Below, one piece after another: positions 20,021-30,169 of a DNA stretch of 32,000 bases; position 1 is the first letter of the stretch, and each line of letters starts with the position of its first letter. A program made the position numbers and the translations under genes. The notes under the pieces are model-generated. The model worked only from the letters and a program-made list of their open reading frames with translations, was not told the origin of the DNA and made no database searches. The stretch lies in contig OZ245049.1 in NCBI GenBank assembly GCA_965224465.1, forward strand, positions 4,080,001 through 4,112,000. Reading direction: 5' to 3'. Source of the stretch: Flavobacteriaceae bacterium (GTDB lineage Bacteria; Bacteroidota; Bacteroidia; Flavobacteriales; Flavobacteriaceae).

Positions 20021-20046
20021 TCATAAATAAATAAAATAAATAAAAT

Positions 20047-20100
20047 AATTCCAAATATAGTTCCAAATGACCGTCAAGAAATAGCGTGTTTTTTGTTTTA
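20047..20100 (+). repeat. Partial, diverged left end of the ~160-bp intergenic element
   Basis: AATTCCAAATATAGTTCCAAATGACCGTCAAGAAATAGCGTGTTTTTTGTTTTA aligns by eye with the element's left TIR, first hairpin and T-rich/GTTTTA segment. Confidence 0.5.
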
Positions 20101-20252
20101 AATGAGTTAAAAAATAGAAAGATAATCATAATTATTGCTTTGTTTTAAATGAGGAGAAAACTAAAAAGAAACTGTTTGTTTTGATTTTTTGAAGATATTA
20201 TTGGAGTGTTATAATAAAAATAGGCGATACCGCTTATTGCAATACAAATAAA

Positions 20253-21326
20253 ATGGAAAACAACAAAGAATGTAGACAGTGGTTAGACGCCATGCAATTG
20301 AATCACCCTTTAGTAATAGCAGGTCCTTGTAGTGCAGAGACCGAAGAGCAAGTGATGGAAACAGCTAAGCTATTACAAAAAACAGATACCAATGTGTTTA
20401 GAGCAGGTATTTGGAAACCAAGAACCCGTCCAGGTCAGTTTGAAGGCGTGGGAGAAAAAGGGTTGAAATGGTTGCAACAAGTAAAAGCAGAAACAGGGAT
20501 GATGGTTACTACTGAGGTAGGAAACGCAGACCACGTGGAAAAGGCTTTAAAACACGGTATCGATATATTGTGGATAGGGGCACGTACCACTGTGAATCCA
20601 TTTGTAGTCCAAGAAATAGCTGATGCCTTAAAAGGAGTGGATATTCCTGTATTGGTAAAAAACCCTGTAAACCCAGATTTAGCTTTATGGTTGGGAGCTG
20701 TAGAGCGTATTCAAACAGCAGGTATTACGCAATTAGGAGTAATTCATAGAGGTTTTTCTACATATAATACGGGACATTATCGCAATAAGCCACAATGGAG
20801 CTTGCCGATAGAATTGAAAAAAGAATTTCCAGATTTACCTTTAATTTTAGATCCTTCTCATATTTGTGGACGTAGAGATACCTTATTGGATGTTTCACAA
20901 ACTGGATTGGATTTGAATTTTGATGGATTTATGATCGAAACTCATATAGATCCAGACAATGCATGGAGTGATGCTGCTCAGCAAATTACACCTGCAAGAT
21001 TGAATGAGATCACCAAAGAACTAAGAATTAGACAAAAAAGCAGTAATGCAGAAGAGTTTCAACGAAAATTAACCATGCACCGTCATGAGTTGGATTTATT
21101 GGATGCAAACCTCGTAGAATTATTATCGGACAGAATGGCTGTGTCAAGTCAGATAGGTGTTTTAAAAAGAAATGAAAATGTTTCAATTTTACAAAGCAAC
21201 CGTTGGGCAGATATTTTAAAGACCATGGTGGAGTCAGGTGAAAAATTAGGGTTGACAAAAGATTTTGTAGAAACTATTTTTAAAGCAATCCATGTAGAGT
21301 CTATTAAAATACAACAAAAGAAATAA
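20253..21326 (+). CDS. Bifunctional 3-deoxy-7-phosphoheptulonate (DAHP) synthase (type I-beta) / chorismate mutase (C-terminal AroQ domain)
   Basis: 357 aa. GPCSAE, RAGIWKPRTRPGQFEGVG and LDPSH motifs. The C-terminal ~90 aa (LDLLDANLVELLSDRMAVSSQIGVLK...IFKAIHVESIKIQ) look like AroQ chorismate mutase. Confidence 0.9.
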   Translation: MENNKECRQWLDAMQLNHPLVIAGPCSAETEEQVMETAKLLQKTDTNVFRAGIWKPRTRPGQFEGVGEKGLKWLQQVKAETGMMVTTEVGNADHVEKALKHGIDILWIGARTTVNPFVVQEIADALKGVDIPVLVKNPVNPDLALWLGAVERIQTAGITQLGVIHRGFSTYNTGHYRNKPQWSLPIELKKEFPDLPLILDPSHICGRRDTLLDVSQTGLDLNFDGFMIETHIDPDNAWSDAAQQITPARLNEITKELRIRQKSSNAEEFQRKLTMHRHELDLLDANLVELLSDRMAVSSQIGVLKRNENVSILQSNRWADILKTMVESGEKLGLTKDFVETIFKAIHVESIKIQQKK

Positions 21327-21426
21327 TAAACAGGGAACTTTAGTCCCAATGATTTGTCTTTGTTTCCTATAAGTGACAGCAGATTCAAAAATAACTTGAG
21401 ACAAGATTCACCTTATTGGGTGTATT

Positions 21427-21471
21427 AAAAACAAAAACGACTATTGCTTCTGCAGGGTCGTTTTTGTTTTT
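21427..21471 (+). terminator. Intrinsic terminator after the DAHP synthase-CM gene
   Basis: Perfect 15-nt inverted repeat AAAAACAAAAACGAC (21427-21441) / GTCGTTTTTGTTTTT (21457-21471) with a 15-nt loop. The GC core CGAC/GTCG is followed by a T-rich tail. Confidence 0.7.
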
Positions 21472-21519
21472 ATATCAGATACATTTCCAAATGACGGTTT
21501 AGAAATAGAATTATTTTTT
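21472..21519 (+). repeat. Partial copy of the intergenic element (tail fragment fused to left-end hairpin)
   Basis: TATATCAG + ATACATTTCCAAATGACGGTTTAGAAATAGAATTATTTTTT matches the element's left TIR, hairpin and T-tract. The internal part is absent. Confidence 0.55.
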
Positions 21520-21705
21520 ACAAGATAAAAATTAAAATAGTTGAGCATAACCTTTGTTATGGGAATCTAATTTTACAAGTTGTGTGTTCTATAGACATGC
21601 TTATTGAAGGGAACTGTTCGAAGTCACCAATCACTAATCCGTTACTAATTATTAAATGTCAAAACAATTATACTATCTTTGCGTTGATAAAAAAACAAAT
21701 GTATA

Positions 21706-22644
21706 GTGGAAGGTATTGTTACAAAATCAACAGGGAGTTGGTATTCAGTGAGGACAGAAGAAGGAGTTCCGTATGATTGCCGTATTCCTGGGCGTTTTCG
21801 AATGAAAGGAATTAAAAGCACCAATCCAGTGGCTGTGGGTGATCGGGTTAGTTTTGACTTAGAGGCTGATAAGAAAACAGGTGTTATTCAGGTGATTCAC
21901 GATCGGACTAATTATATTGTGCGAAAATCCGTGAATTTATCCAAGCAGACACATATTATCGCTGCCAATATTGACATGGCTTTTTTATTAGTAACTATTG
22001 ATAATCCTCCTACATCTACAGGGTTTATCGATCGGTTTTTAGCGACAGCAGAGGCGTATTCTATTCCTGTAATTATAGTGTTTAATAAAATGGATATTTA
22101 TACAGCAGCAAATACAGCTCGCAACGAGGAATTGACAGCAATTTATACAAAAATTGGATATAAATGTATAAATGTGTCTGCGACTACAGGGCATAATATT
22201 GAGATCATTAAAACGATCATGAAAGATAAAGTGAGCATGTTTTCGGGGCATTCAGGAGTCGGGAAATCTACCTTGGTAAACGCAGTTGAAAAAGGACTAA
22301 ATCTAAAAACAGGAGAGGTTTCTAAGCAGCATAAACAAGGAATTCACACCACTACTTTTGCCGAAATGTTTAAGCTTTCTTTTGGAGGGTATATAATTGA
22401 TACGCCTGGGATCAAAGGATTTGGGGTGGTCGCCTTTAAAAAAGAGGAGATTGGGGATTATTTCCCAGAAATTTTCAAAATAAAAGGAGGCTGTAAATTC
22501 AATAATTGTATTCATGTAAACGAGCCACATTGTGTAGTGAAAGATGCGGTTGCAACAGATGAGATTTCTGAATCTCGTTATACAAGTTATTTACAATTAC
22601 TAGATGATGAAGATCAACATTACCGTGTAGATATCTATAATTAA
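21706..22644 (+). CDS. rsgA: Ribosome small-subunit-dependent GTPase A
   Basis: 312 aa with a GTG start. N-terminal OB-like GIVTKSTGSWYSV, circularly permuted GTPase (NKMD ... GHSGVGKST) and a C-terminal zinc knuckle CKFNNCIHVNEPHC. TATCTTTG (21674-21681) upstream fits TAnnTTTG. Confidence 0.9.
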   Translation: MEGIVTKSTGSWYSVRTEEGVPYDCRIPGRFRMKGIKSTNPVAVGDRVSFDLEADKKTGVIQVIHDRTNYIVRKSVNLSKQTHIIAANIDMAFLLVTIDNPPTSTGFIDRFLATAEAYSIPVIIVFNKMDIYTAANTARNEELTAIYTKIGYKCINVSATTGHNIEIIKTIMKDKVSMFSGHSGVGKSTLVNAVEKGLNLKTGEVSKQHKQGIHTTTFAEMFKLSFGGYIIDTPGIKGFGVVAFKKEEIGDYFPEIFKIKGGCKFNNCIHVNEPHCVVKDAVATDEISESRYTSYLQLLDDEDQHYRVDIYN

Positions 22645-22679
22645 TCTCTTTTTTTGTTAAATTATTAGTAGTTAAAAAT

Positions 22680-23132
22680 ATGAAAGCAGTTGTACAACGT
22701 GTTCGTAAAGCATCCGTAACAATCAATGATTCTATTGAAAGTTCGATTGGTAATGGGATTTTAATATTGTTAGGAATCGCTCCGGAGGATAGCCTTGAAG
22801 ACATAGATTGGTTGGTGAAAAAAATAAGCAATATGCGTATTTTTGACGATGCGAATGGAGTGATGAATTTATCGGTGATAGATGTTAAAGGTGAAGTTCT
22901 AGTTGTCAGTCAATTTACACTACAGGCAAGTACAAAAAAAGGAAACCGCCCTTCTTATATAAAAGCAGCAAAACCTGATATAGCGATTCCGTTATACGAA
23001 ACTTTTAAGCAGCATTTGACAACAGCGATGGGTCAAGATGTTAAAAGTGGTGTTTTTGGTGCAGACATGGAAGTGTCTTTAGTGAATAATGGTCCTGTAA
23101 CAATCATCATAGATTCTAAGAATAAAATCTAA
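22680..23132 (+). CDS. dtd: D-aminoacyl-tRNA deacylase
   Basis: 150 aa. MKAVVQRV, VSQFTL, KGNRPS, GVFGADM and NNGPVT motifs. Confidence 0.9.
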   Translation: MKAVVQRVRKASVTINDSIESSIGNGILILLGIAPEDSLEDIDWLVKKISNMRIFDDANGVMNLSVIDVKGEVLVVSQFTLQASTKKGNRPSYIKAAKPDIAIPLYETFKQHLTTAMGQDVKSGVFGADMEVSLVNNGPVTIIIDSKNKI

Positions 23133-23147
23133 TTATTTTCTGTAAAT
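23086..23147 (+). repeat. Direct repeat copy 1 (authentic dtd 3' end plus 15 nt past the stop)
   Basis: CAATCATCATAGATTCTAAGAATAAAATCTAATTATTTTCTGTAAAT (23101-23147) recurs at 23263-23309 with 2 mismatches. Looser similarity extends about 15 nt upstream. Confidence 0.8.
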
Positions 23148-23162
23148 GAATAGGGTTCTATA

Positions 23163-23258
23163 ACACCTGCTTTTTTTTAAAAACAAACCCAGTGCCCACA
23201 ATAATCTACAGCGATTTATACAAGCTATTTGTATCGGTTATTTTGGATTGTAATTGGT
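23163..23258 (+). repeat. Internally diverged or deleted copy of the intergenic element (intact right end 23225-23258)
   Basis: Starts with ACACC and ends with CTATTTGTATCGGTTATTTTGGATTGTAATTGGT, nearly identical to the right ends of the copies at 27.7 and 27.9 kb. The middle is not alignable by eye. Confidence 0.5.
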
Positions 23259-23309
23259 CTAACAATCAGCATAGATTCTAAGAATAAAATCTAATTATTT
23301 TTTGTAAAT
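23250..23309 (+). repeat. Direct repeat copy 2 (pseudo 3' end of dtd: ...TISIDSKNKI*)
   Basis: Offset is exactly 162 nt from copy 1. It carries the last 10 dtd codons with one replacement, the stop codon and 15 nt of downstream sequence. Confidence 0.8.
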
Positions 23310-23324
23310 TGCTGAGGTTCAATA

Positions 23325-23484
23325 ATACCAAATACATCTCCATTGACGGTTTAGATATGGAATTATTTTTTGTTTTAGCTAGGCGAAAAGTCTAAGGATA
23401 CCCTTAGCTATCGTTCTGTTTTTTAACAAGGCTAGAACGTAAAATAAACTATTTATATCGGTCATTTTGGAGTGTAATTGGGAT
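23325..23484 (+). repeat. Intergenic element, full copy A (~160 bp)
   Basis: Left end ATACCAAATACATCTCC and right end GGAGTGTAATTGGGAT. Internal GTTTTAGCTAGGCGAAAA...CTAAGGATACCCTTAG...GCTAGAACGTAAAATAAACTATTTATATCGG aligns with copies B, C and D. Confidence 0.8.
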
Positions 23485-23582
23485 AAGTGGTATAAGACCT
23501 ACACTTTTTTATTGAAATACATTTCCTTGTAAGTGTGTTTTCGAGGTTTATTTGAGTAATTATATATTAATTGTTTGTATTT

Positions 23583-23831
23583 ATGAGAAAATATTATTTG
23601 CTAGTTGTATTACTGTTGGCTGTTTTAAGCGTTAATTCACAATCTTCTTATGCTTTTGATGCCATTCCAATTCCTTTATTGAAAAATGCGAATGCCATCA
23701 TTAGAGATCAAAATATTTCTATTCAGATTGTGGCTTTTGATAAAATGAAAATTAAGATCAAAAAGGCGATTACTATTAAAAATAAGTTAGGAGATAGGTA
23801 TAATTCTGTGCGGGTTCACTATAATCAATGC
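23583..23831 (+). pseudogene. N-terminal fragment of a DUF3857/transglutaminase-like/DUF3858-family secreted protein, truncated by an IS insertion
   Basis: Signal peptide MRKYYLLVVLLLAVLSVNSQ. The reading frame ends at a TGA (23832-23834) formed by the first bases of the IS inverted repeat. Confidence 0.75.
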
Positions 23832-24952
23832 TGAATTCAAGTCACAAACGCAACTTTTAGTTAAATAATAATTGTTCCATTACAAATATAGGGTTTTGAT
23901 ATTTATGTCTCTTCCTAGGTCTGTTATTTAATTTTGTTTCTACCTCTTTGATTCTTTGATCTGTTAGGTTTGTAAAGTCACTTCCTTTGGCAAAATATTG
24001 TCTAATCAAACCATTTAAATTTTCGTTAGATCCTCTTTCCCAAGAGTGATATGGATGCGCAAAAAAGTAATCAATACATAAATTTTCTGCAACCTGCTCA
24101 TGGCCTGCAAATTCTTTTCCATTATCAGCTGTTATAGTATGTAGATAAGGCTTCCAGTCTTCTAATATTTCATTGATAGCTTTAGTGACAACAACTGCTT
24201 CTTTAGAGCTTACTTTTTTCATTTTAAGCATTCCAGAAGCTCTATCATTTACGGTAAGTATGGCTTGATTATGGTTTTTACCTATGATTAAATCGACCTC
24301 TAAATCTCCAAATCGATTTCTTTGTTCAACAACTTCAGGGCGTTGTTCTATACTAATACGATTCTTTATAACCCCTCTAGAATCCTTTGATGAGCCACGT
24401 TTTCTATATCTCCTTCCCTGTCTGCGAAGGTGTGTATGTAAATCACCATCATTCCTCTTGTCTTCCCTAATATGCTGATATATACGCTCAATAGACACCG
24501 TTTCTTTACCTTGTTTTTTTAGGACACCAACTACTTGCTCAGGACTATAATCGTCTCGCAATAACAACTCTATTGCTTGTTGAATATCTTCTGTAAAGCG
24601 TTTTCTTTTAGGCTTTTCTTTATGACGTTTAGCATACTTTTTTTGGGCTAATTCATGCTTGTAAACTCCATTTCTTTTGTCTGAATTACGCTTAATCTCT
24701 TTGCTAATAACAGACTTGTCTTTTCCTATAGCAGCTGCTATCTCAACCTGTTTATAACCTTGTTTTAACATGCAACAAATTGTGTATCTTTGCGCTTGGG
24801 TGATGTGTTTCATACAACTTCTTTTTTCGAGATTTGAGACCGTAAGATACATATCCATCAAGACAAGAAAGGTAGGTTTTCCTACTTTTCTGTTTTGAAA
24901 ATATAACCATCATAGAATCAAATCGAAAAGTTGCGTTTATTAGTTGAATTTA
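23832..24952 (-). mobile_element. IS30-family insertion sequence (1121 bp)
   Basis: 27-nt imperfect terminal inverted repeats, 23832-23858 (TGAATTCAAGTCACAAACGCAACTTTT) and 24926-24952, match at 23 of 27 positions by hand. They enclose a single DDE transposase gene. Confidence 0.85.
23857..24813 (-). CDS. IS30-family DDE transposase
   Basis: N-terminal HTH (MKHITQAQRYTICCMLKQGYKQVEIAAAIGKDKSVISKEIKRN). Catalytic region with GDLEVDLI, TADNGKEF and SWERGSNENLNGLIRQY. The ORF is open to 24861, and the start at the MKHIT Met is preferred. Confidence 0.9.
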   Translation of the reverse strand: MKHITQAQRYTICCMLKQGYKQVEIAAAIGKDKSVISKEIKRNSDKRNGVYKHELAQKKYAKRHKEKPKRKRFTEDIQQAIELLLRDDYSPEQVVGVLKKQGKETVSIERIYQHIREDKRNDGDLHTHLRRQGRRYRKRGSSKDSRGVIKNRISIEQRPEVVEQRNRFGDLEVDLIIGKNHNQAILTVNDRASGMLKMKKVSSKEAVVVTKAINEILEDWKPYLHTITADNGKEFAGHEQVAENLCIDYFFAHPYHSWERGSNENLNGLIRQYFAKGSDFTNLTDQRIKEVETKLNNRPRKRHKYQNPIFVMEQLLFN

Positions 24953-26791
24953 AGTAGTAAAGAGGGGGGATTTAAAGTTATTACGGAAGTACATGAAAGG
25001 GTTAAGATTTATAATAAAGAGGGCTATGATTGGGCGACAAAAAAAATACGATATTATACCTCCTCTTCTTCTGATTCTGAGAAAGTAATATTGAAAGGAG
25101 CTAAAACGTACCGATTGGAAGAAGGTAAAGTCAAGGCGTATAAGTTTAAGAAATCAGATGTTTTTCTTGAGAAAGTAAATAAGTATTGGTCTAAAAAAAT
25201 ATTTACCATGCCTAAGTTGACCGAAGGGTGTGTTGTAGAATGGAAATATAAATTAATCTCACCCTATAAATCAATTGATAAATTGAATTTGCAATATGGA
25301 ATACCTGCAAAAAGAGTACAGTGTAAAATTGAGATTCCAGAGTATTATATCTTTGACCTAAAATCCTTAGGGTTTGAAAGGGTTGAAATGAAAAAATATG
25401 TCAAAGCAGGGTCTATTATCCTTACAAGTAAAAGTAGGTCTGGTGGATGGGGAAAGGTTAAAGTCAATTATTCTTCTCAGAATGTTAAATATGATATTAA
25501 TGTGATGGAGGTGAGTAAGGATTTTATGCCTGCTTTAAAAGAGGAATCTTACGTGAATAATATCAATAACTATAGAACTTCAATTAAATATGAATTGTCC
25601 GCAGTCAGTTGGCCAAACGAACCTATAAAATACTTTTCTAAAAACTGGAGTGATGTAGCAAAAACGATACTGAAAAAGAGTGGTTTTGGTGCAGAAATGA
25701 ATAAGAAATCATATTTTAAAAAAGATCTTGAACTATTAAAAAAGGAGGCTAAAAATCAACAAGAACTTCTGAATAGTATTTTTAGTTTTGTGAAAAGCAA
25801 GGTGAAATGGAATGGATATAATGGTTTATATACGGATAAAGGAGTTAAGTCTGCTTATAAAAACGGGACAGGAAATATTGCTGAGATTAATTTAATTTTA
25901 GTTGCAATGCTTCGCGAAGCTGGGATTGCTGCCAATCCAGTATTAGCGAGTACACGTAGTAATGGTGTGCCAGTGTTTCCAACCATAGACGGTTTTAATT
26001 ACGTGTTAGCTGCTGTTGAAAAAGTAGGGAACGTAATCTTATTAGATGCATCGGAGAAGTATAGTGCCCCAAATATCTTGCCTTCTAGAATTTTGAATTG
26101 GAAGGGGCGTATTGTTAGAGAAGATAAAACATCTGATTGGGTGGCACTTATCCCTGTAAAACATTCAAAAAAAGACTGTATTCTAAGTGTTATTATTAAT
26201 GATGATGATGAGATCAACGGTTTTTTAAGAACTAAATATTCGAATAATGCAGCTTTGAAATACAGAAATAATTACAATGCGTTTTCCGATGAAGAACTCC
26301 TAGAGGAAATAGACGAGAAGAATAAAGAGATCGATGTGTCGTTAGCAAACATAAGATTTAAGGAGGATATTCATAAATCCATAGTTGAAACCGTAAAGTT
26401 TAGTTCTGAGGATTTGTTAGAAGAGGTAAACGGAGAAGTGTTTCTAAAGCCGCTGTTGTTTCTAGGAGAAACAACCAATCCTTTTAAAATGGAAAACAGA
26501 GTGTACCCTATAGATTATGGGACTCCTTGGTCAAATAGTTATAAGATTTCTATTAAAATCCCTGAAAATTATAACGTGGTTTCTGTTCCGGAAAGTATAG
26601 AATTACTACTGAAAGATGGGATGGGACATTTTGTAATGTTTATAAAGGAGCAAAAAGGAGGCCTAAGTGTCAAGGCAAGTTTGTCTATCAATACAGGAAT
26701 GATTCCCGCCTCTGATTATGAATTGTTGAAGGTTTTTTATAAAAAAATGTTAAAAAAGATGAACGAGAAGATTGTTTTTAAGAAAATGTAA
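24953..26791 (+). pseudogene. C-terminal portion of the IS-disrupted DUF3857/transglutaminase-like/DUF3858-family protein
   Basis: GTGNIAEINLILVAMLREAGIAANPVLASTRSNG...FNYVLAAVE...ILLDASE is the transglutaminase-like core with the catalytic Cys position substituted. The frame joins that of 23583-23831 once 23832-24952 is removed. Confidence 0.75.
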
Positions 26792-26847
26792 CTTTTTTTA
26801 GTATATTCGACGCTTATACTAACCTTAACTAATACAAACATAAAAAA

Positions 26848-27495
26848 ATGAAAAAAGTAATTTTTATATTAGCTGTTGTTGGACTTGCATTCACATCTTG
26901 TAAGGATAACGAGAAGAAATCAGAAGCTAAAAAAGAAGCAGAAGTAGAGAAAAAAGTTATTGAGAAAGCAGTAGCTTATAAAGGAGATTATGTTGTAGAC
27001 ATAAGTTCTTCAGAATTAAAATGGAAAGGTTTTAAACCTACGGGATCTCACCATGGATCTTTGAAGATTAAATCGGGAAGTTTTTCTTTGACTGATGGAA
27101 AAGTTGTTTCTGGGGATTTCTTGATGGACATGACAAGTATTGTAGTCTTAGATCTTCCTGCAGATGATCCATACAATGCAAAATTGATGGGGCACTTAAA
27201 ATCGGAAGAATTTTTTGGTGTTGAAGCTTATCCTACCGCACATTTTAAAATAACCAAGGTTGAGAAAAATACTGTTTCTGGAGATTTAACCATCAAAGGA
27301 CACACAGAAAATGTGACGTTTAAAGCGACTACTTCTGAAAATAACGGGGTCGTTACTTTTAAAAGTGAAACATTTAAAATTGATAGAACTGATTTTAAAA
27401 TCAAATACAAGTCAAAAAAGTTTTTTGAGAACTTAAAAGATAAATTTATCAACGATGAAATTGAAATTTCAATTGTTGTAAGTTCAGTAAAATAG
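26848..27495 (+). CDS. YceI-like domain lipoprotein
   Basis: Lipobox LAFTSC. SELKWKGFKPTGSHHGSLKIKSGSF...GHLKSEEFFGVEAYPTAHFKITKVE...GDLTIKGHTENVTF matches the YceI-like polyisoprenoid-binding fold signature. Confidence 0.8.
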   Translation: MKKVIFILAVVGLAFTSCKDNEKKSEAKKEAEVEKKVIEKAVAYKGDYVVDISSSELKWKGFKPTGSHHGSLKIKSGSFSLTDGKVVSGDFLMDMTSIVVLDLPADDPYNAKLMGHLKSEEFFGVEAYPTAHFKITKVEKNTVSGDLTIKGHTENVTFKATTSENNGVVTFKSETFKIDRTDFKIKYKSKKFFENLKDKFINDEIEISIVVSSVK

Positions 27496-27520
27496 ATTTT
27501 TTAAATAAAATATTAAAAAA

Positions 27521-27554
27521 GTCATCTCATTAATTTTGAGGTGACTTTTTTTTT
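27521..27554 (+). terminator. Intrinsic terminator after the YceI-like gene
   Basis: Stem GTCATCTCA (27521-27529) / TGAGGTGAC (27537-27545) has one G-U pair and a 7-nt loop, followed by T9. Confidence 0.75.
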
Positions 27555-27605
27555 GTTTATGAATGATAGTTTGCAGTTGGTAGTGGGCAGTGGGCGGTTG
27601 GCAGA

Positions 27606-27744
27606 GGTGGTTTGAAATGGAATTATTTTTTGTTTTAGCTAGGCGAAAAATGGAAGGATAGCCTTCGCTATCGTTCTATTTTTGAACAACGCTAAAACGT
27701 AAAATAAACTATTTGTATCAGTTATTTTGGATTGTAATTGGTGT
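27606..27744 (+). repeat. Intergenic element copy B (left TIR missing, replaced by a G-rich tract)
   Basis: GGTGGTTTGAAATGGAATTATTTTTTGTTTTAGCTAGGCGAAAAATGGAAGGATAGCCTTCGCT...GGATTGTAATTGGTGT. Nearly identical to copy C, with a 161-nt period. Confidence 0.85.
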
Positions 27745-27745
27745 T

Positions 27746-27904
27746 ACACCAAATACATTTCAAAGTGGTGGTTTGAAATGGAATTATTTTTTGTTTTAGC
27801 TAGGCGAGAAATGGAAGGATAGCCTTCGCTATCGTTCTATTTTTGAACAACGTTAAAACGTAAAATAAACTATTATATCAGTTATTTTGGATTGTAATTG
27901 GTGT
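27746..27904 (+). repeat. Intergenic element copy C (full, 159 bp), head-to-tail with copy B
   Basis: The left TIR ACACCAAATACATTTC and the reverse complement of the right end (ACACCAATTACAATCC) match at 13 of 16 positions. The last base overlaps the stop codon of the minus-strand Lrp/AsnC gene. Confidence 0.85.
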
Positions 27905-28362
27905 TATAGAGGGACTTTAATCTCGTTTTTGGCAGAACTCATTACGATATTGCTTCTTACATTTCCGACCGCTGATAATACTGATAATTTATTTTTTAAA
28001 AACAATTGGTAATGTTGGATGTCTGGAACTACTACTTTTAATAAGTAGTCGTAATTTCCAGCTACATGGTGGCATTCCAAAACTTCATCTAATTTAATAA
28101 TAGCATTTTCGAATTGGTTGATGAGGTTTTTTGAATGTACTTGTAAAGAAACTTGACAATAGACTGTCATTCCGTAGCCCAATTTTAGGTGATCTACCAA
28201 GGCTACATATTTTGTAATAATACCATTTCTTTCAAGTCGTTTAATACGTTCGTAAGTAGGTGTAACCGTGAGTCCTACACGCATGGAAATCTCCTTGGTA
28301 TTTGCTTTGCTGTTTTCTTGCAATAAGTTGACTATTTTTATATCGATAGTATCCAAATCCAT
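27904..28362 (-). CDS. Lrp/AsnC-family transcriptional regulator
   Basis: 152 aa. N-terminal HTH (LDTIDIKIVNLLQENSKANTKEISMRVGLTVTPTYERIKRLERNGII) and a C-terminal RAM/ligand domain. Confidence 0.9.
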   Translation of the reverse strand: MDLDTIDIKIVNLLQENSKANTKEISMRVGLTVTPTYERIKRLERNGIITKYVALVDHLKLGYGMTVYCQVSLQVHSKNLINQFENAIIKLDEVLECHHVAGNYDYLLKVVVPDIQHYQLFLKNKLSVLSAVGNVRSNIVMSSAKNEIKVPL

Positions 28363-28376
28363 TCTTTTAGATTTTT

Positions 28377-28394
28377 ATCCTATAATTATAGGAT
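28377..28394. promoter_or_regulatory. Perfect 18-bp palindrome in the Lrp / PLP-lyase divergent intergenic region (candidate operator)
   Basis: ATCCTATAATTATAGGAT is its own reverse complement and lies 15 nt upstream of the Lrp start codon. A tandem CTATATTA direct repeat follows at 28421-28428 and 28430-28437. Confidence 0.4.
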
Positions 28395-28524
28395 TATTAA
28401 GGTGCTCAAAGATAATAAAACTATATTAACTATATTAGTTAGATTGATTTTCTGTTATCTGTAATAAAACCAGTTTTTAAAATGGAATAATTATATATTT
28501 ACCTTGAATTTAATAAGTTATACC

Positions 28525-29742
28525 ATGGTAGATACAAAAGAAATGGCTTTAAAGCCAGCAAATAAAATTCAAGATATACAGTATTTTGGAGAGTTCGGAG
28601 GGGTAAATCCATCTATTTCAGATTCAGCTACATATACTTTTTTGGCGGCGAAAACAATGCTAGATACCTTTGAAGGGCATGCAGAGGGTTGTTATTTGTA
28701 TTCAAGACATACCAGTCCTAGTAATTTACATTTAGGAGATGCTTTGGCTGCTATGGAATATACGGAAACTGCCAATGTTGCATCTTCAGGAATGGGAGCT
28801 ATTACTTCGGTTATTTTGCAAATCTGTGGTGCAGGAGATCACATTGTTTCAAGTAGAACTATTTATGGTGGAACCTATGCTTTTGCAAAGAATTTTTTAC
28901 CAAAACTAAATATTACTACGTCGTTTGTAGATATTACAAACTTAGAAAAAATAGAAGCTGCGATCAACGAGAATACAAAAATGATCTACTGTGAAGGTAT
29001 AAGCAATCCATTATTAGAAATTGCAGACATTCCTGCATTGGCTAAGATGGCTAAGAAACATGGAATTCCCCTAGTTGTAGACAATACTTTTTCGCCCTTA
29101 ATTATCACTCCTCAAAAAATGGGAGCAGATATTACCATTCATAGTTTGACCAAATTTATTAATGGAACCAATGATACTGTTGGTGGCGTTGTATGTGGAA
29201 CACACGATTTTATCAATGCATTGAAAAGTGTAAACGATGGTGCTGCTATGTTGTTAGGTCCTGTAATGGATAGTTTAAGATCTGCCAGTATTCTTAAAAA
29301 CATGCGTACACTTCACATTCGTATGAAGCAACATAGTTACAATGCTAAATACTTAGCGGAACGTTTTGAGAATGATGGTTTAAAAGTGGTTTACCCTGGA
29401 TTGGAAAGTCATAAAGGACATGAGTTATTCAAGTCTATGTACAATTCTGAGTATGGTTTTGGAGGGATTATGACCGTTGAAGTTGGTGGCTTAGATAAAG
29501 CCAACGAGTTGATGGAACTTATGCAATCAGAAAACTTAGGATATTTAGCAGTGAGTTTAGGTTTCTATAAAACCCTCTTTAGTGCGCCAGGTACGAGTAC
29601 TTCTTCTGAAATCCCTGAAGATGAACAAGTAGAAATGGGATTGTCGGATGGTATTATTCGTTTTTCTATCGGATTGGATAATGATATTGAAAGAACCTAC
29701 CAACAAATGAAAAAATGCATGCAAACACTGAATGTCTTGTAA
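28525..29742 (+). CDS. Cys/Met-metabolism PLP-dependent enzyme (methionine gamma-lyase / O-acylhomoserine sulfhydrylase family)
   Basis: About 405 aa from the ATG at 28525 (the ORF is open from a TTG at 28504). GGVNPSISDSATYTF, SSGMGAI and HSLTKFINGTND (PLP lysine in SxTK) motifs. Confidence 0.8.
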   Translation: MVDTKEMALKPANKIQDIQYFGEFGGVNPSISDSATYTFLAAKTMLDTFEGHAEGCYLYSRHTSPSNLHLGDALAAMEYTETANVASSGMGAITSVILQICGAGDHIVSSRTIYGGTYAFAKNFLPKLNITTSFVDITNLEKIEAAINENTKMIYCEGISNPLLEIADIPALAKMAKKHGIPLVVDNTFSPLIITPQKMGADITIHSLTKFINGTNDTVGGVVCGTHDFINALKSVNDGAAMLLGPVMDSLRSASILKNMRTLHIRMKQHSYNAKYLAERFENDGLKVVYPGLESHKGHELFKSMYNSEYGFGGIMTVEVGGLDKANELMELMQSENLGYLAVSLGFYKTLFSAPGTSTSSEIPEDEQVEMGLSDGIIRFSIGLDNDIERTYQQMKKCMQTLNVL

Positions 29743-29750
29743 ATGGTGTA

Positions 29751-29911
29751 ACCCAAATACCTTTCCAAGTGAGGGTTTGGAAAGGGACTTGTTTTGTTGT
29801 TTTAGCTAGGCGAAAACCGGAAGGATAGCCTTCGCTGTCGTTCTGTTTTTTAACAACACTAGAACGTAAAATAAACTATCTATATCGGTTGTTTTGGAGC
29901 GTAATTTGTGT
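29751..29911 (+). repeat. Intergenic element copy D (full, 161 bp)
   Basis: ACCCAAATACCTTTCC...GTTTTAGCTAGGCGAAAACCGGAAGGATAGCCTTCGCTG...GAGCGTAATTTGTGT. Lies between the lyase stop codon and its terminator. Confidence 0.85.
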
Positions 29912-29912
29912 A

Positions 29913-29967
29913 ACACCAATTACCTTTCCAAGTGACAGTTTAGAAATGGAATTATTTGTTGTTTTGC
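29913..29967 (+). repeat. Truncated next unit of the element (left TIR + hairpin + T-rich segment), head-to-tail with copy D
   Basis: ACACCAATTACCTTTCCAAGTGACAGTTTAGAAATGGAATTATTTGTTGTTTTGC. Separated from copy D by a single A. Confidence 0.75.
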
Positions 29968-29979
29968 ATCCCCAATATT

Positions 29980-30007
29980 ACCACGGCTTTTACGTCGTGG
30001 TTTTTTT
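29980..30007 (+). terminator. Intrinsic terminator of the PLP-lyase transcript
   Basis: Stem ACCACGGC (29980-29987) / GTCGTGGT (29994-30001) has one G-U pair. 6-nt loop TTTTAC. A T7 run at 30001-30007 includes the closing T. Confidence 0.8.
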
Positions 30008-30169
30008 ATACCTATGTTTTATGTGGATGCGTTTAGATATTGATTATATTAAACATTTTAGATGAACTTGTATTAATTTCGTTACAAATAGTGACTATGT
30101 GGCTTATTTTAATTTATTTGCATAGCCTTTTTAAAAACCGTAAACTTACAAAAACTTAAATACAATTAT

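Follow-up and report, generated by a model that had tools for sequence, protein, structure and literature searches.

A dispersed ~160-bp inverted-repeat element of a marine Flavobacteriaceae clade, very probably a non-autonomous transposon with TWA target duplications

The window, namely the whole stretch of 32,000 nucleotides analysed here (1-32000), displays a GC content of 27-35%, a GC skew of +0.12 to +0.25 throughout, and nearly all of its genes on the + strand; the positive skew and the plus-strand genes together identify it as leading strand. The flagged unit (29752-29910) lies between the gene of a Cys/Met-metabolism PLP enzyme (methionine gamma-lyase type) and the intrinsic terminator of that gene. 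Using nhmmer, eight repeats of the unit are detected, all on the + strand and all within 20046-29965: four full copies (among them copy B, truncated at its 5' end), one rearranged copy, two fragments, and one degenerate copy. They are given below together with the substructures of copy D, the flagged unit.

20046..20189, + strand: degenerate copy, older or from a sister subfamily (nhmmer E=1.7e-8, model positions 11-155)
21470..21519, + strand: solo 5' module (terminal repeat and hairpin 1), 3' of a terminator (nhmmer E=1.1e-6)
23164..23259, + strand: rearranged copy A0 (nhmmer E=4.5e-8, model positions 131-181), TAA at 23161-23163 and 23260-23262
23326..23483, + strand: copy A, 158 bp, TAA at 23323-23325 and 23484-23486
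27603..27743, + strand: copy B, 5'-truncated (nhmmer E=5e-44, model positions 31-176)
27747..27903, + strand: copy C, 157 bp, TTA at 27744-27746 and 27904-27906
29749..29751, no strand: left target-site duplication TAA of copy D, read from the sequence
29752..29910, + strand: copy D, 159 bp (nhmmer E=1.9e-49)
29760..29785, + strand: hairpin 1 of copy D, CCTTTCCAA / TTGGAAAGG, 9 bp
29799..29865, + strand: central domain of copy D, an enclosing stem and two overlapping hairpins
29799-29806 with 29858-29865, + strand: enclosing stem of copy D, GTTTTAGC with ACTAGAAC
29820-29833, + strand: hairpin 2 of copy D as first described, GAAGG-ATAG-CCTTC
29824-29839, + strand: alternative hairpin of copy D, GATAGC-CTTC-GCTGTC, followed by a T-run
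29911..29913, no strand: right target-site duplication TAA of copy D, doubling as the 3-bp spacer to fragment E, read from the sequence
29914..29960, + strand: fragment E, 5' terminal repeat and hairpin-1 module only (nhmmer E=6.8e-11, model positions 11-65)
29980..30008, + strand: intrinsic terminator of the upstream Cys/Met-metabolism PLP-enzyme gene (methionine gamma-lyase type), a terminator-like site at 29980-30001 plus a T-run

Copies of the element are recognised with nhmmer E-values of about 1e-44 to 1e-56, the per-column identity among copies A to D is 85%, and the 15-mer GTTTTAGCTAGGCGA occurs four times against 0.58 expected. Copies B and C are arranged head-to-tail with one TTA common to both, and fragment E adjoins copy D via a common TAA. 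The 5' terminal repeat of copy D has lost one base (C-CC vs CACC). Copy A0 starts with CACC, continues with 54 nt of unrelated sequence, and ends with the 3' tail module. The 5' end of copy B is replaced by about five heptamer repeats (GTTGGTA GTGGGCA GTGGGCG GTTGGCA GAGGTGG, 27569-27603), of which GTGGGCACTGGG is also present, inverted, inside A0 (23188-23199, - strand); heptamers of the CAACAAG/CAACCAG type form about four tandem units of ~51 nt, on the opposite strand, in the YceI-AsnC spacer of a related locus (L104, 9100-9378).

The host sequence around A0 and A is itself duplicated. Segments 23098-23167 and 23260-23329 share 87% identity at a spacing of 162 bp and cover the 3' end of dtd (D-aminoacyl-tRNA deacylase; 32 bp with the stop codon) and ~35 nt downstream. 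Both start with TAA and end with TAA followed by the first bases of the element (CACC or TACC). The dtd reading frame runs to its end in the first duplicate, after which comes A0; copy A follows the second. Judged from the sequence, this looks like a tandem duplication of the host segment plus the element via TAA repeats, with a later internal replacement in A0.

Element copies are 157-165 bp long and have stops in all six frames, the longest open stretch being 47 codons. No match was returned when their translated frames were searched against Pfam and NCBIfam, and a 34-codon minus-strand frame, considered as a possible transposase remnant, was discarded, having no Pfam or NCBIfam match. Full copies start with (T/C)ACCAAWTACA and end with TGTAATTGGT(A/G), forming a terminal inverted repeat of 11-12 bp. 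This repeat (TACCAATTACA / TGTAATTGGTA) is perfect across 11 bp and extends imperfectly inwards, over 19 nt with 84% complementarity in copy C and over 26 nt with 81% in L018, one of the copies from related genomes described below. The element also matches its own reverse complement (E ~1e-12 in nhmmer). One half of the element is an inverted repeat of the other, which allows either strand to form a single long hairpin.

Of 12 insertions, 10 are bordered on both sides by the same 3 bp in direct orientation, either TAA or TTA. The flanks are TAA/TAA for A, D, L018, L009, L014 (orthologous to L001), and both the outer and the inner element of L021, and TTA/TTA for C, L015, and L006; the exceptions are L011, with an imperfect pair (AAA/TTA), and the decayed copy L020, with none. 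Among the duplicated insertions, TAA never faces TTA across one element. The flanks are thus not a mere extension of the inverted repeat, which would place TAA opposite TTA. At L021 (3883-4205, - strand), an inner copy interrupts an outer one at the latter's GGCGA/AAA/ATC position, and the junction reads ...TAGGCGA|TAA|inner copy|TAA|TTCTAAGG... Only by taking out the inner copy together with one TAA is the canonical length of the outer element restored. In the head-to-tail pairs B-C and D-E, a single TWA is common to both elements, so that each junction consists of an end, 3 bp, and an end. Such sharing would result if the trinucleotide beside the first copy had been the target of the second.

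The source genome carries further copies. Outside the window, at least two more are present on the same 5.24-Mb contig (5,241,564 bp), as found by a protein-database search with the translation of the element's one long open frame. Two publicly annotated hypothetical proteins of 46-47 aa, P0121 and P0122, turn out to be minus-strand translations of element copies, hence spurious ORFs, and it is their location on the source contig that reveals the additional copies. The copy behind P0121 is divergent in sequence past the tail, and the one behind P0122 lacks the entire central stem-loop domain, a loss that fits a deletion between the two T-runs.

Beyond the source genome, true copies were found only in the Flavobacteriaceae MAGs NORP129 and NORP150 (North Pond), ten of them on nine contigs. 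The genome scan used an exact 17-mer and one genome per species, and its other 12 matches were due to chance. The same holds for all 79 loci retrieved from metagenomes with the 3' terminal repeat, as judged by nhmmer, and for the matches in three scans of viral contigs. One copy of NORP129 (L001, 4587-4616) has a 23-nt insertion in its tail, TACTTGTGCCCAACTTGATTGGG, with a small hairpin of its own (CCCAA-CTTGA-TTGGG), which is lacking in its NORP150 orthologue L014.

The closest relatives of the PLP enzyme upstream of copy D share 90-94% identity in metagenomes and ~84% in Lutibacter. Four syntenic loci at 90-92% protein identity, L103 (North Pond) and L104-L106, were compared with the window; they display the same gene order, from prephenate dehydrogenase through the Na+/H+ antiporter. 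All four have the terminator ACCACGGCTTTTA(A)GTCGTGGTTTTTT ~27 nt past the stop codon of the PLP-enzyme gene. Between this stop codon and the conserved terminator (29980-30008), the window carries the insertions D and E. Likewise, downstream of dtd, L103 reads gttcagTAAatcc, with a single TAA, at the site where the window has ttcaaTAA[A]TAAgtgg, [A] standing for copy A. No clear copy of the element was seen in loci L103-L106. The sites of A and of D/E are unoccupied in close relatives, and the YceI-AsnC spacer, which holds B and C in the window, has wholly different content in them. The insertions are recent events that separate the source genome from relatives at 90-92% protein identity, one of which has placed a ~160-nt hairpin-forming insert in the 3' UTR of a methionine gamma-lyase-type gene of Cys/Met metabolism. 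Since it lies between the stop codon and the terminator of this gene, copy D is probably co-transcribed with it as a 3'-UTR hairpin.

Head-to-tail pairs such as B-C and D-E, and the 162-bp tandem duplication that includes the dtd end and adjoins copy A, would also be produced by a locally duplicated satellite, spread by recombination only and without any transposon. Yet two other genomes carry copies dispersed over separate contigs, every copy with a 3-bp direct repeat of its own, one copy is nested in another, and the empty sites are clean; a satellite origin is accordingly the least probable of the readings weighed here. What was found is an element of small size without a credible ORF, with terminal inverted repeats, a flanking duplication, and dispersed copies that differ in presence and absence between genomes. 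Because it is non-coding, ends in terminal inverted repeats, duplicates TWA, has inserted into its own kind, and is missing from the corresponding sites of relatives, the unit at 29752-29910 is very probably a non-autonomous DNA transposon (MITE) of ~160 bp, proper to a small marine Flavobacteriaceae clade near Lutibacter. As a feature type, the flagged ~160-base stretch seems ordinary; the MITE family itself seems undescribed.

The unit had drawn attention for another reason. From four copies compared by hand, the earlier note had described two hairpins and a long-range enclosing stem preserved by compensatory base changes, and had read them as signs of a structured RNA or ssDNA. The stems themselves are confirmed by reading. 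Hairpin 1 pairs CATTTCAAA (27756-27764) with TTTGAAATG (27772-27780) in copy C and CCTTTCCAA (29760-29768) with TTGGAAAGG (29777-29785) in copy D. Hairpin 2 is GAAGG-ATAG-CCTTC at 27814-27827 and CTAAGG-ATAC-CCTTAG at 23392-23407 in copy A. In the enclosing stem, an invariant GTTTTAGC faces GCTAAAAC in B, GTTAAAAC in C, GCTAGAAC in A, and ACTAGAAC in D, the substitutions giving three G.U wobbles and one C.A mismatch, just as had been described. The matched substitutions between the hairpins 1 of C and D are also correct (A>C twice, T>G twice), but the one-base insertion reported in the 5' arm is absent; the true change in length is that the 3' arm of B and C is one base shorter than in the family consensus.

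Structurally, these stems are parts of a larger fold. The whole element is a quasi-palindrome, of which a continuous end-to-end hairpin is the minimum-energy fold in 9 of 13 copies. In L015, L011, and L001, the ends are still paired in this fold and the interior is branched; copy D, alone of the 13, prefers the local hairpin 1. The RNAalifold consensus is one hairpin of 53 pairs, with 94.1% of cells paired. The enclosing stem corresponds to helix 4 of this long hairpin (97% paired) and, together with hairpin 2, forms its tip; pair 7 of the stem (G-C) is unpaired in 9 of the 13 copies. Hairpin 1 is a local alternative: its 5' arm coincides with the inward portion of the 5' terminal repeat and can pair either with the 3' terminal repeat or with the adjacent TTAGAAATG. 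Hairpin 2 overlaps and competes with a better conserved hairpin, GATAGC-CTTM-GCTATC. When followed by GTTCT(A/G)TTTT, the form GATAGC-CTTC-GCT(A/G)TC scores as terminator-like on the + strand, at 27657-27682, 27818-27843, and 29824-29849. The region totals 12 intrinsic-terminator-like sites against 1.4 expected, mostly owing to the MITE copies. Folded as single strands, both strands of the element do better than their own shuffles (z from -1.8 to -8.9 for the + strand), and the + strand exceeds the - strand in stability by 2-24 kcal/mol in every one of the 13 copies, via G.U pairs. This difference is weak evidence, because most of the G.U wobbles are shared by descent.

Whether the base changes compensate each other beyond the four window copies was assessed with 13 full copies and 16 hairpin-1 modules, and with 500 shuffles as control. 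The power for covariation is low with only 13-16 closely related copies, and related sequences beat shuffles even without structural constraint. Taken together, the three helices of the earlier note have 85.6% of their cells paired, a value reached by 1 of 500 shuffles, and a covariation score reached by none of 500; pairs changed on both sides amount to 3 of 23, versus 1.3 in shuffles (37 of 500 reach this number). The covariation check that had been called for thus yields, at 13-16 copies, two values that shuffles rarely or never attain (cells paired, 1/500; score, 0/500), but no measure of double-sided change clearly above them. For hairpin 1 alone, in 16 copies, 81.7% of cells are paired (9/500), and there are two double-change pairs (32/500) with a covariation score that 28 of 500 shuffles reach. 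Its unpaired cells number 26 of 142, changes that break a pair being as common as compensated ones; pair 7 is a C.A mismatch in the family consensus, as in 14 of the 16 copies, and fragment E combines the 5' arm of copy D (CCTTTCCAA) with an uncompensated 3' arm. The long hairpin, with 94.1% of cells paired (179/500) and three double-change pairs versus 3.0 in shuffles (351/500), is at the shuffle mean by every measure. The exchange events are few: a U-A to G-C change common to B, C, and D, and one each in L006, D, and a degenerate copy. The compensatory changes are therefore real in the four window copies, but they are not general across the 13 full copies or the 16 modules.

These results bear on the proposal that the element functions, originally or secondarily, as a structured RNA, for instance as a small RNA, a weak terminator, an RNase III target, or a stabiliser of 3' UTRs, and that selection acts on + strand transcripts to keep both hairpins and the enclosing stem. 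Several observations are in line with it: hairpin 1 reaches a perfect 9 bp in C and D via different sequences, hairpin 2 shows one G-C to U-A and one A-U to U-G exchange, the three helices outdo shuffles in covariation score and cells paired, the + strand is the more stable one in every copy, copy D is located inside a transcription unit upstream of its terminator, and GATAGC-CTTC-GCTATC with its T-run resembles a terminator. Against this, double-change pairs are few and the best-paired structure behaves as shuffles do, hairpin 1 is broken as often as it is compensated, with fragment E left uncompensated, and the copy behind P0122 dispenses with the whole central domain. Positions relative to terminators vary, the B/C pair and the copy at 21470 being 3' of terminators, and the orientation relative to genes is mixed, L018 and L021 being antisense. 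Rfam returned no match at gathering thresholds, and even with E relaxed to 10 the elements remained without one; a PsrR1 match (E=0.39) was set aside, as it covers a host terminator only. A selected RNA is on balance unlikely, and for copies within transcripts, such as D, the support for such a role is no more than anecdotal. We infer that the stems and the few paired changes are by-products of the way a MITE is built, from inverted repeats, rather than features of a demonstrably selected RNA. The stems that had been taken for structured RNA or ssDNA do exist, but have this simpler cause.

Orientation also speaks to the ssDNA part of the earlier proposal. Relative to flanking genes, L001, L011, L015, and L020 are in sense and L018 and L021 in antisense orientation; relative to local GC skew, three of the MAG loci run with it and six against. 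Mixed orientation argues against both an obligate + strand transcript and a strand-specific transposition of ssDNA, and is as expected for insertion of double-stranded DNA. With no measure of double-sided change clearly above shuffles and orientation mixed, the outcome comes close to the one that the earlier note had named as refuting its proposal. A rule of orientation linked to replication or transcription, as suggested by the all-plus copies of the window, was rejected, since the MAG loci do not fit it; the all-plus arrangement represents some five independent events and chance can explain it. Movement as ssDNA would make the element a palindrome-associated derivative of IS200/IS605 or a REP/BIME-like unit, with a tyrosine (HUH) transposase acting on its hairpins. 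The strong hairpin potential, the location of all window copies on the leading (+) strand, and the G.T-rich mismatches favouring one strand would all suit such a mechanism. Nevertheless, target duplication and terminal inverted repeats are both present in the element, the orientation to GC skew in the MAG loci is mixed, similar subterminal hairpins in direct orientation at both ends are missing, and there is no tnpA, tnpB, or RAYT gene nearby. IS200/IS605 and REP elements are not known to make target duplications or to have terminal inverted repeats. This possibility is hence very improbable.

As a MITE, the element would be mobilised in trans by a DDE transposase binding both of its ends; it has inserted at TWA, with duplication of the three bases, in intergenic DNA, beside other copies, and inside another copy. 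The stems and their paired changes would then follow from the inverted-repeat architecture and from both ends having to serve one enzyme. The 3-bp TWA duplication points to a candidate enzyme of the IS5 family (IS1031 group) or of PIF/Harbinger-like type, and the tandem junctions (end, 3 bp, end) would also suit an end-joining family such as IS30. Neither an IS-sized pair of MITE terminal repeats nor a mobilising transposase with matching ends was found in the window or in 13 related loci. The only transposase of the window belongs to an IS30-family element located 370 bp from copy A; it was rejected as the driver of the MITE, its terminal repeats AATTCAAGTCACAAACGCAAC being unlike the MITE ends.

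This IS30-family IS of ~1117 bp (23834-24950) encodes its transposase at 23857-24861 on the - strand (NF033563, 290.7 bits) and is bounded by terminal repeats of 25 nt that are 88% complementary. On one side it is flanked by the first 87 codons of a DUF3857 gene (23571-23834), on the other by a second gene of this type, DUF3857/transglutaminase (24944-26791). At this site, both paralogues are intact in L103 and L104 (637 and 666-667 aa), indicating that the IS of the window is associated with a deletion of ~1.9 kb.

A further variant, also improbable, is that the MITE family has been co-opted for a role at the RNA level, or that it represents, in bacteria, what Tourist elements are in eukaryotes, with an as yet undescribed PIF/Harbinger-like transposase of Flavobacteriaceae as its driver. 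Under co-option, transcripts might be stabilised at the 3' UTR, cut by RNase III, or terminated by way of the long hairpin or of the GATAGC/GCTATC hairpin plus T-run, and copies such as D might be evolving a stronger local hairpin 1. The reading as a MITE explains a cluster of repeats otherwise open to over-interpretation as RNA genes; public annotation already carries two spurious ORFs inside its copies. A TWA-duplicating MITE of Flavobacteriaceae would modestly enlarge the list of known bacterial mobile elements and also provides a handle for finding its transposase.

Several known systems can be compared with this family. Members of the IS30 family make duplications of 2-3 bp, insert beside their own inverted repeats, and form tandem dimers in which the abutted ends are spaced by the length of the duplication. 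The B-C and D-E junctions are alike in this respect, but the ends of the IS30-family element near copy A (AATTCAAGTCACAAACGCAAC) are unlike those of the MITE. PIF/Harbinger elements prefer TWA and are related to the IS5 family, and the IS1031 group of the latter makes 3-bp duplications. With Tourist, PIF/Harbinger, and the IS1031 group, the MITE shares a 3-bp duplication of the TWA form, the duplication being the basis of the link, and its terminal bases, (T/C)ACC, differ from the GAG or GG ends of the IS5 and IS1031 groups. The 3-bp target duplication of PIF/Harbinger elements has been documented (PMC2213677). MITEs are described as abundant in Flavobacteriales, and those with terminal repeats and duplications of 2-10 bp as numerous in Flavobacterium and relatives (PMC11602168); the main text of this catalogue of Bacteroidota/Flavobacteriales MITEs does not include Lutibacter (PMC11602168). 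Close parallels in build are the Correia elements of Neisseria, ERIC/IRU of Enterobacteria, and RUP of Streptococcus pneumoniae. As with the present MITE, they are non-coding, multi-copy units of ~100-170 bp, quasi-palindromic between terminal inverted repeats, which form a long hairpin when transcribed; they are mostly intergenic, often in 3' UTRs, and occur in truncated and nested variants. In contrast, they share no sequence similarity with the MITE, whose host is a member of the Flavobacteriaceae, and the duplication is TWA (3 bp) here versus TA in Correia and RUP. Correia elements are known to be processed by RNase III, to have promoter activity, and to bind IHF.
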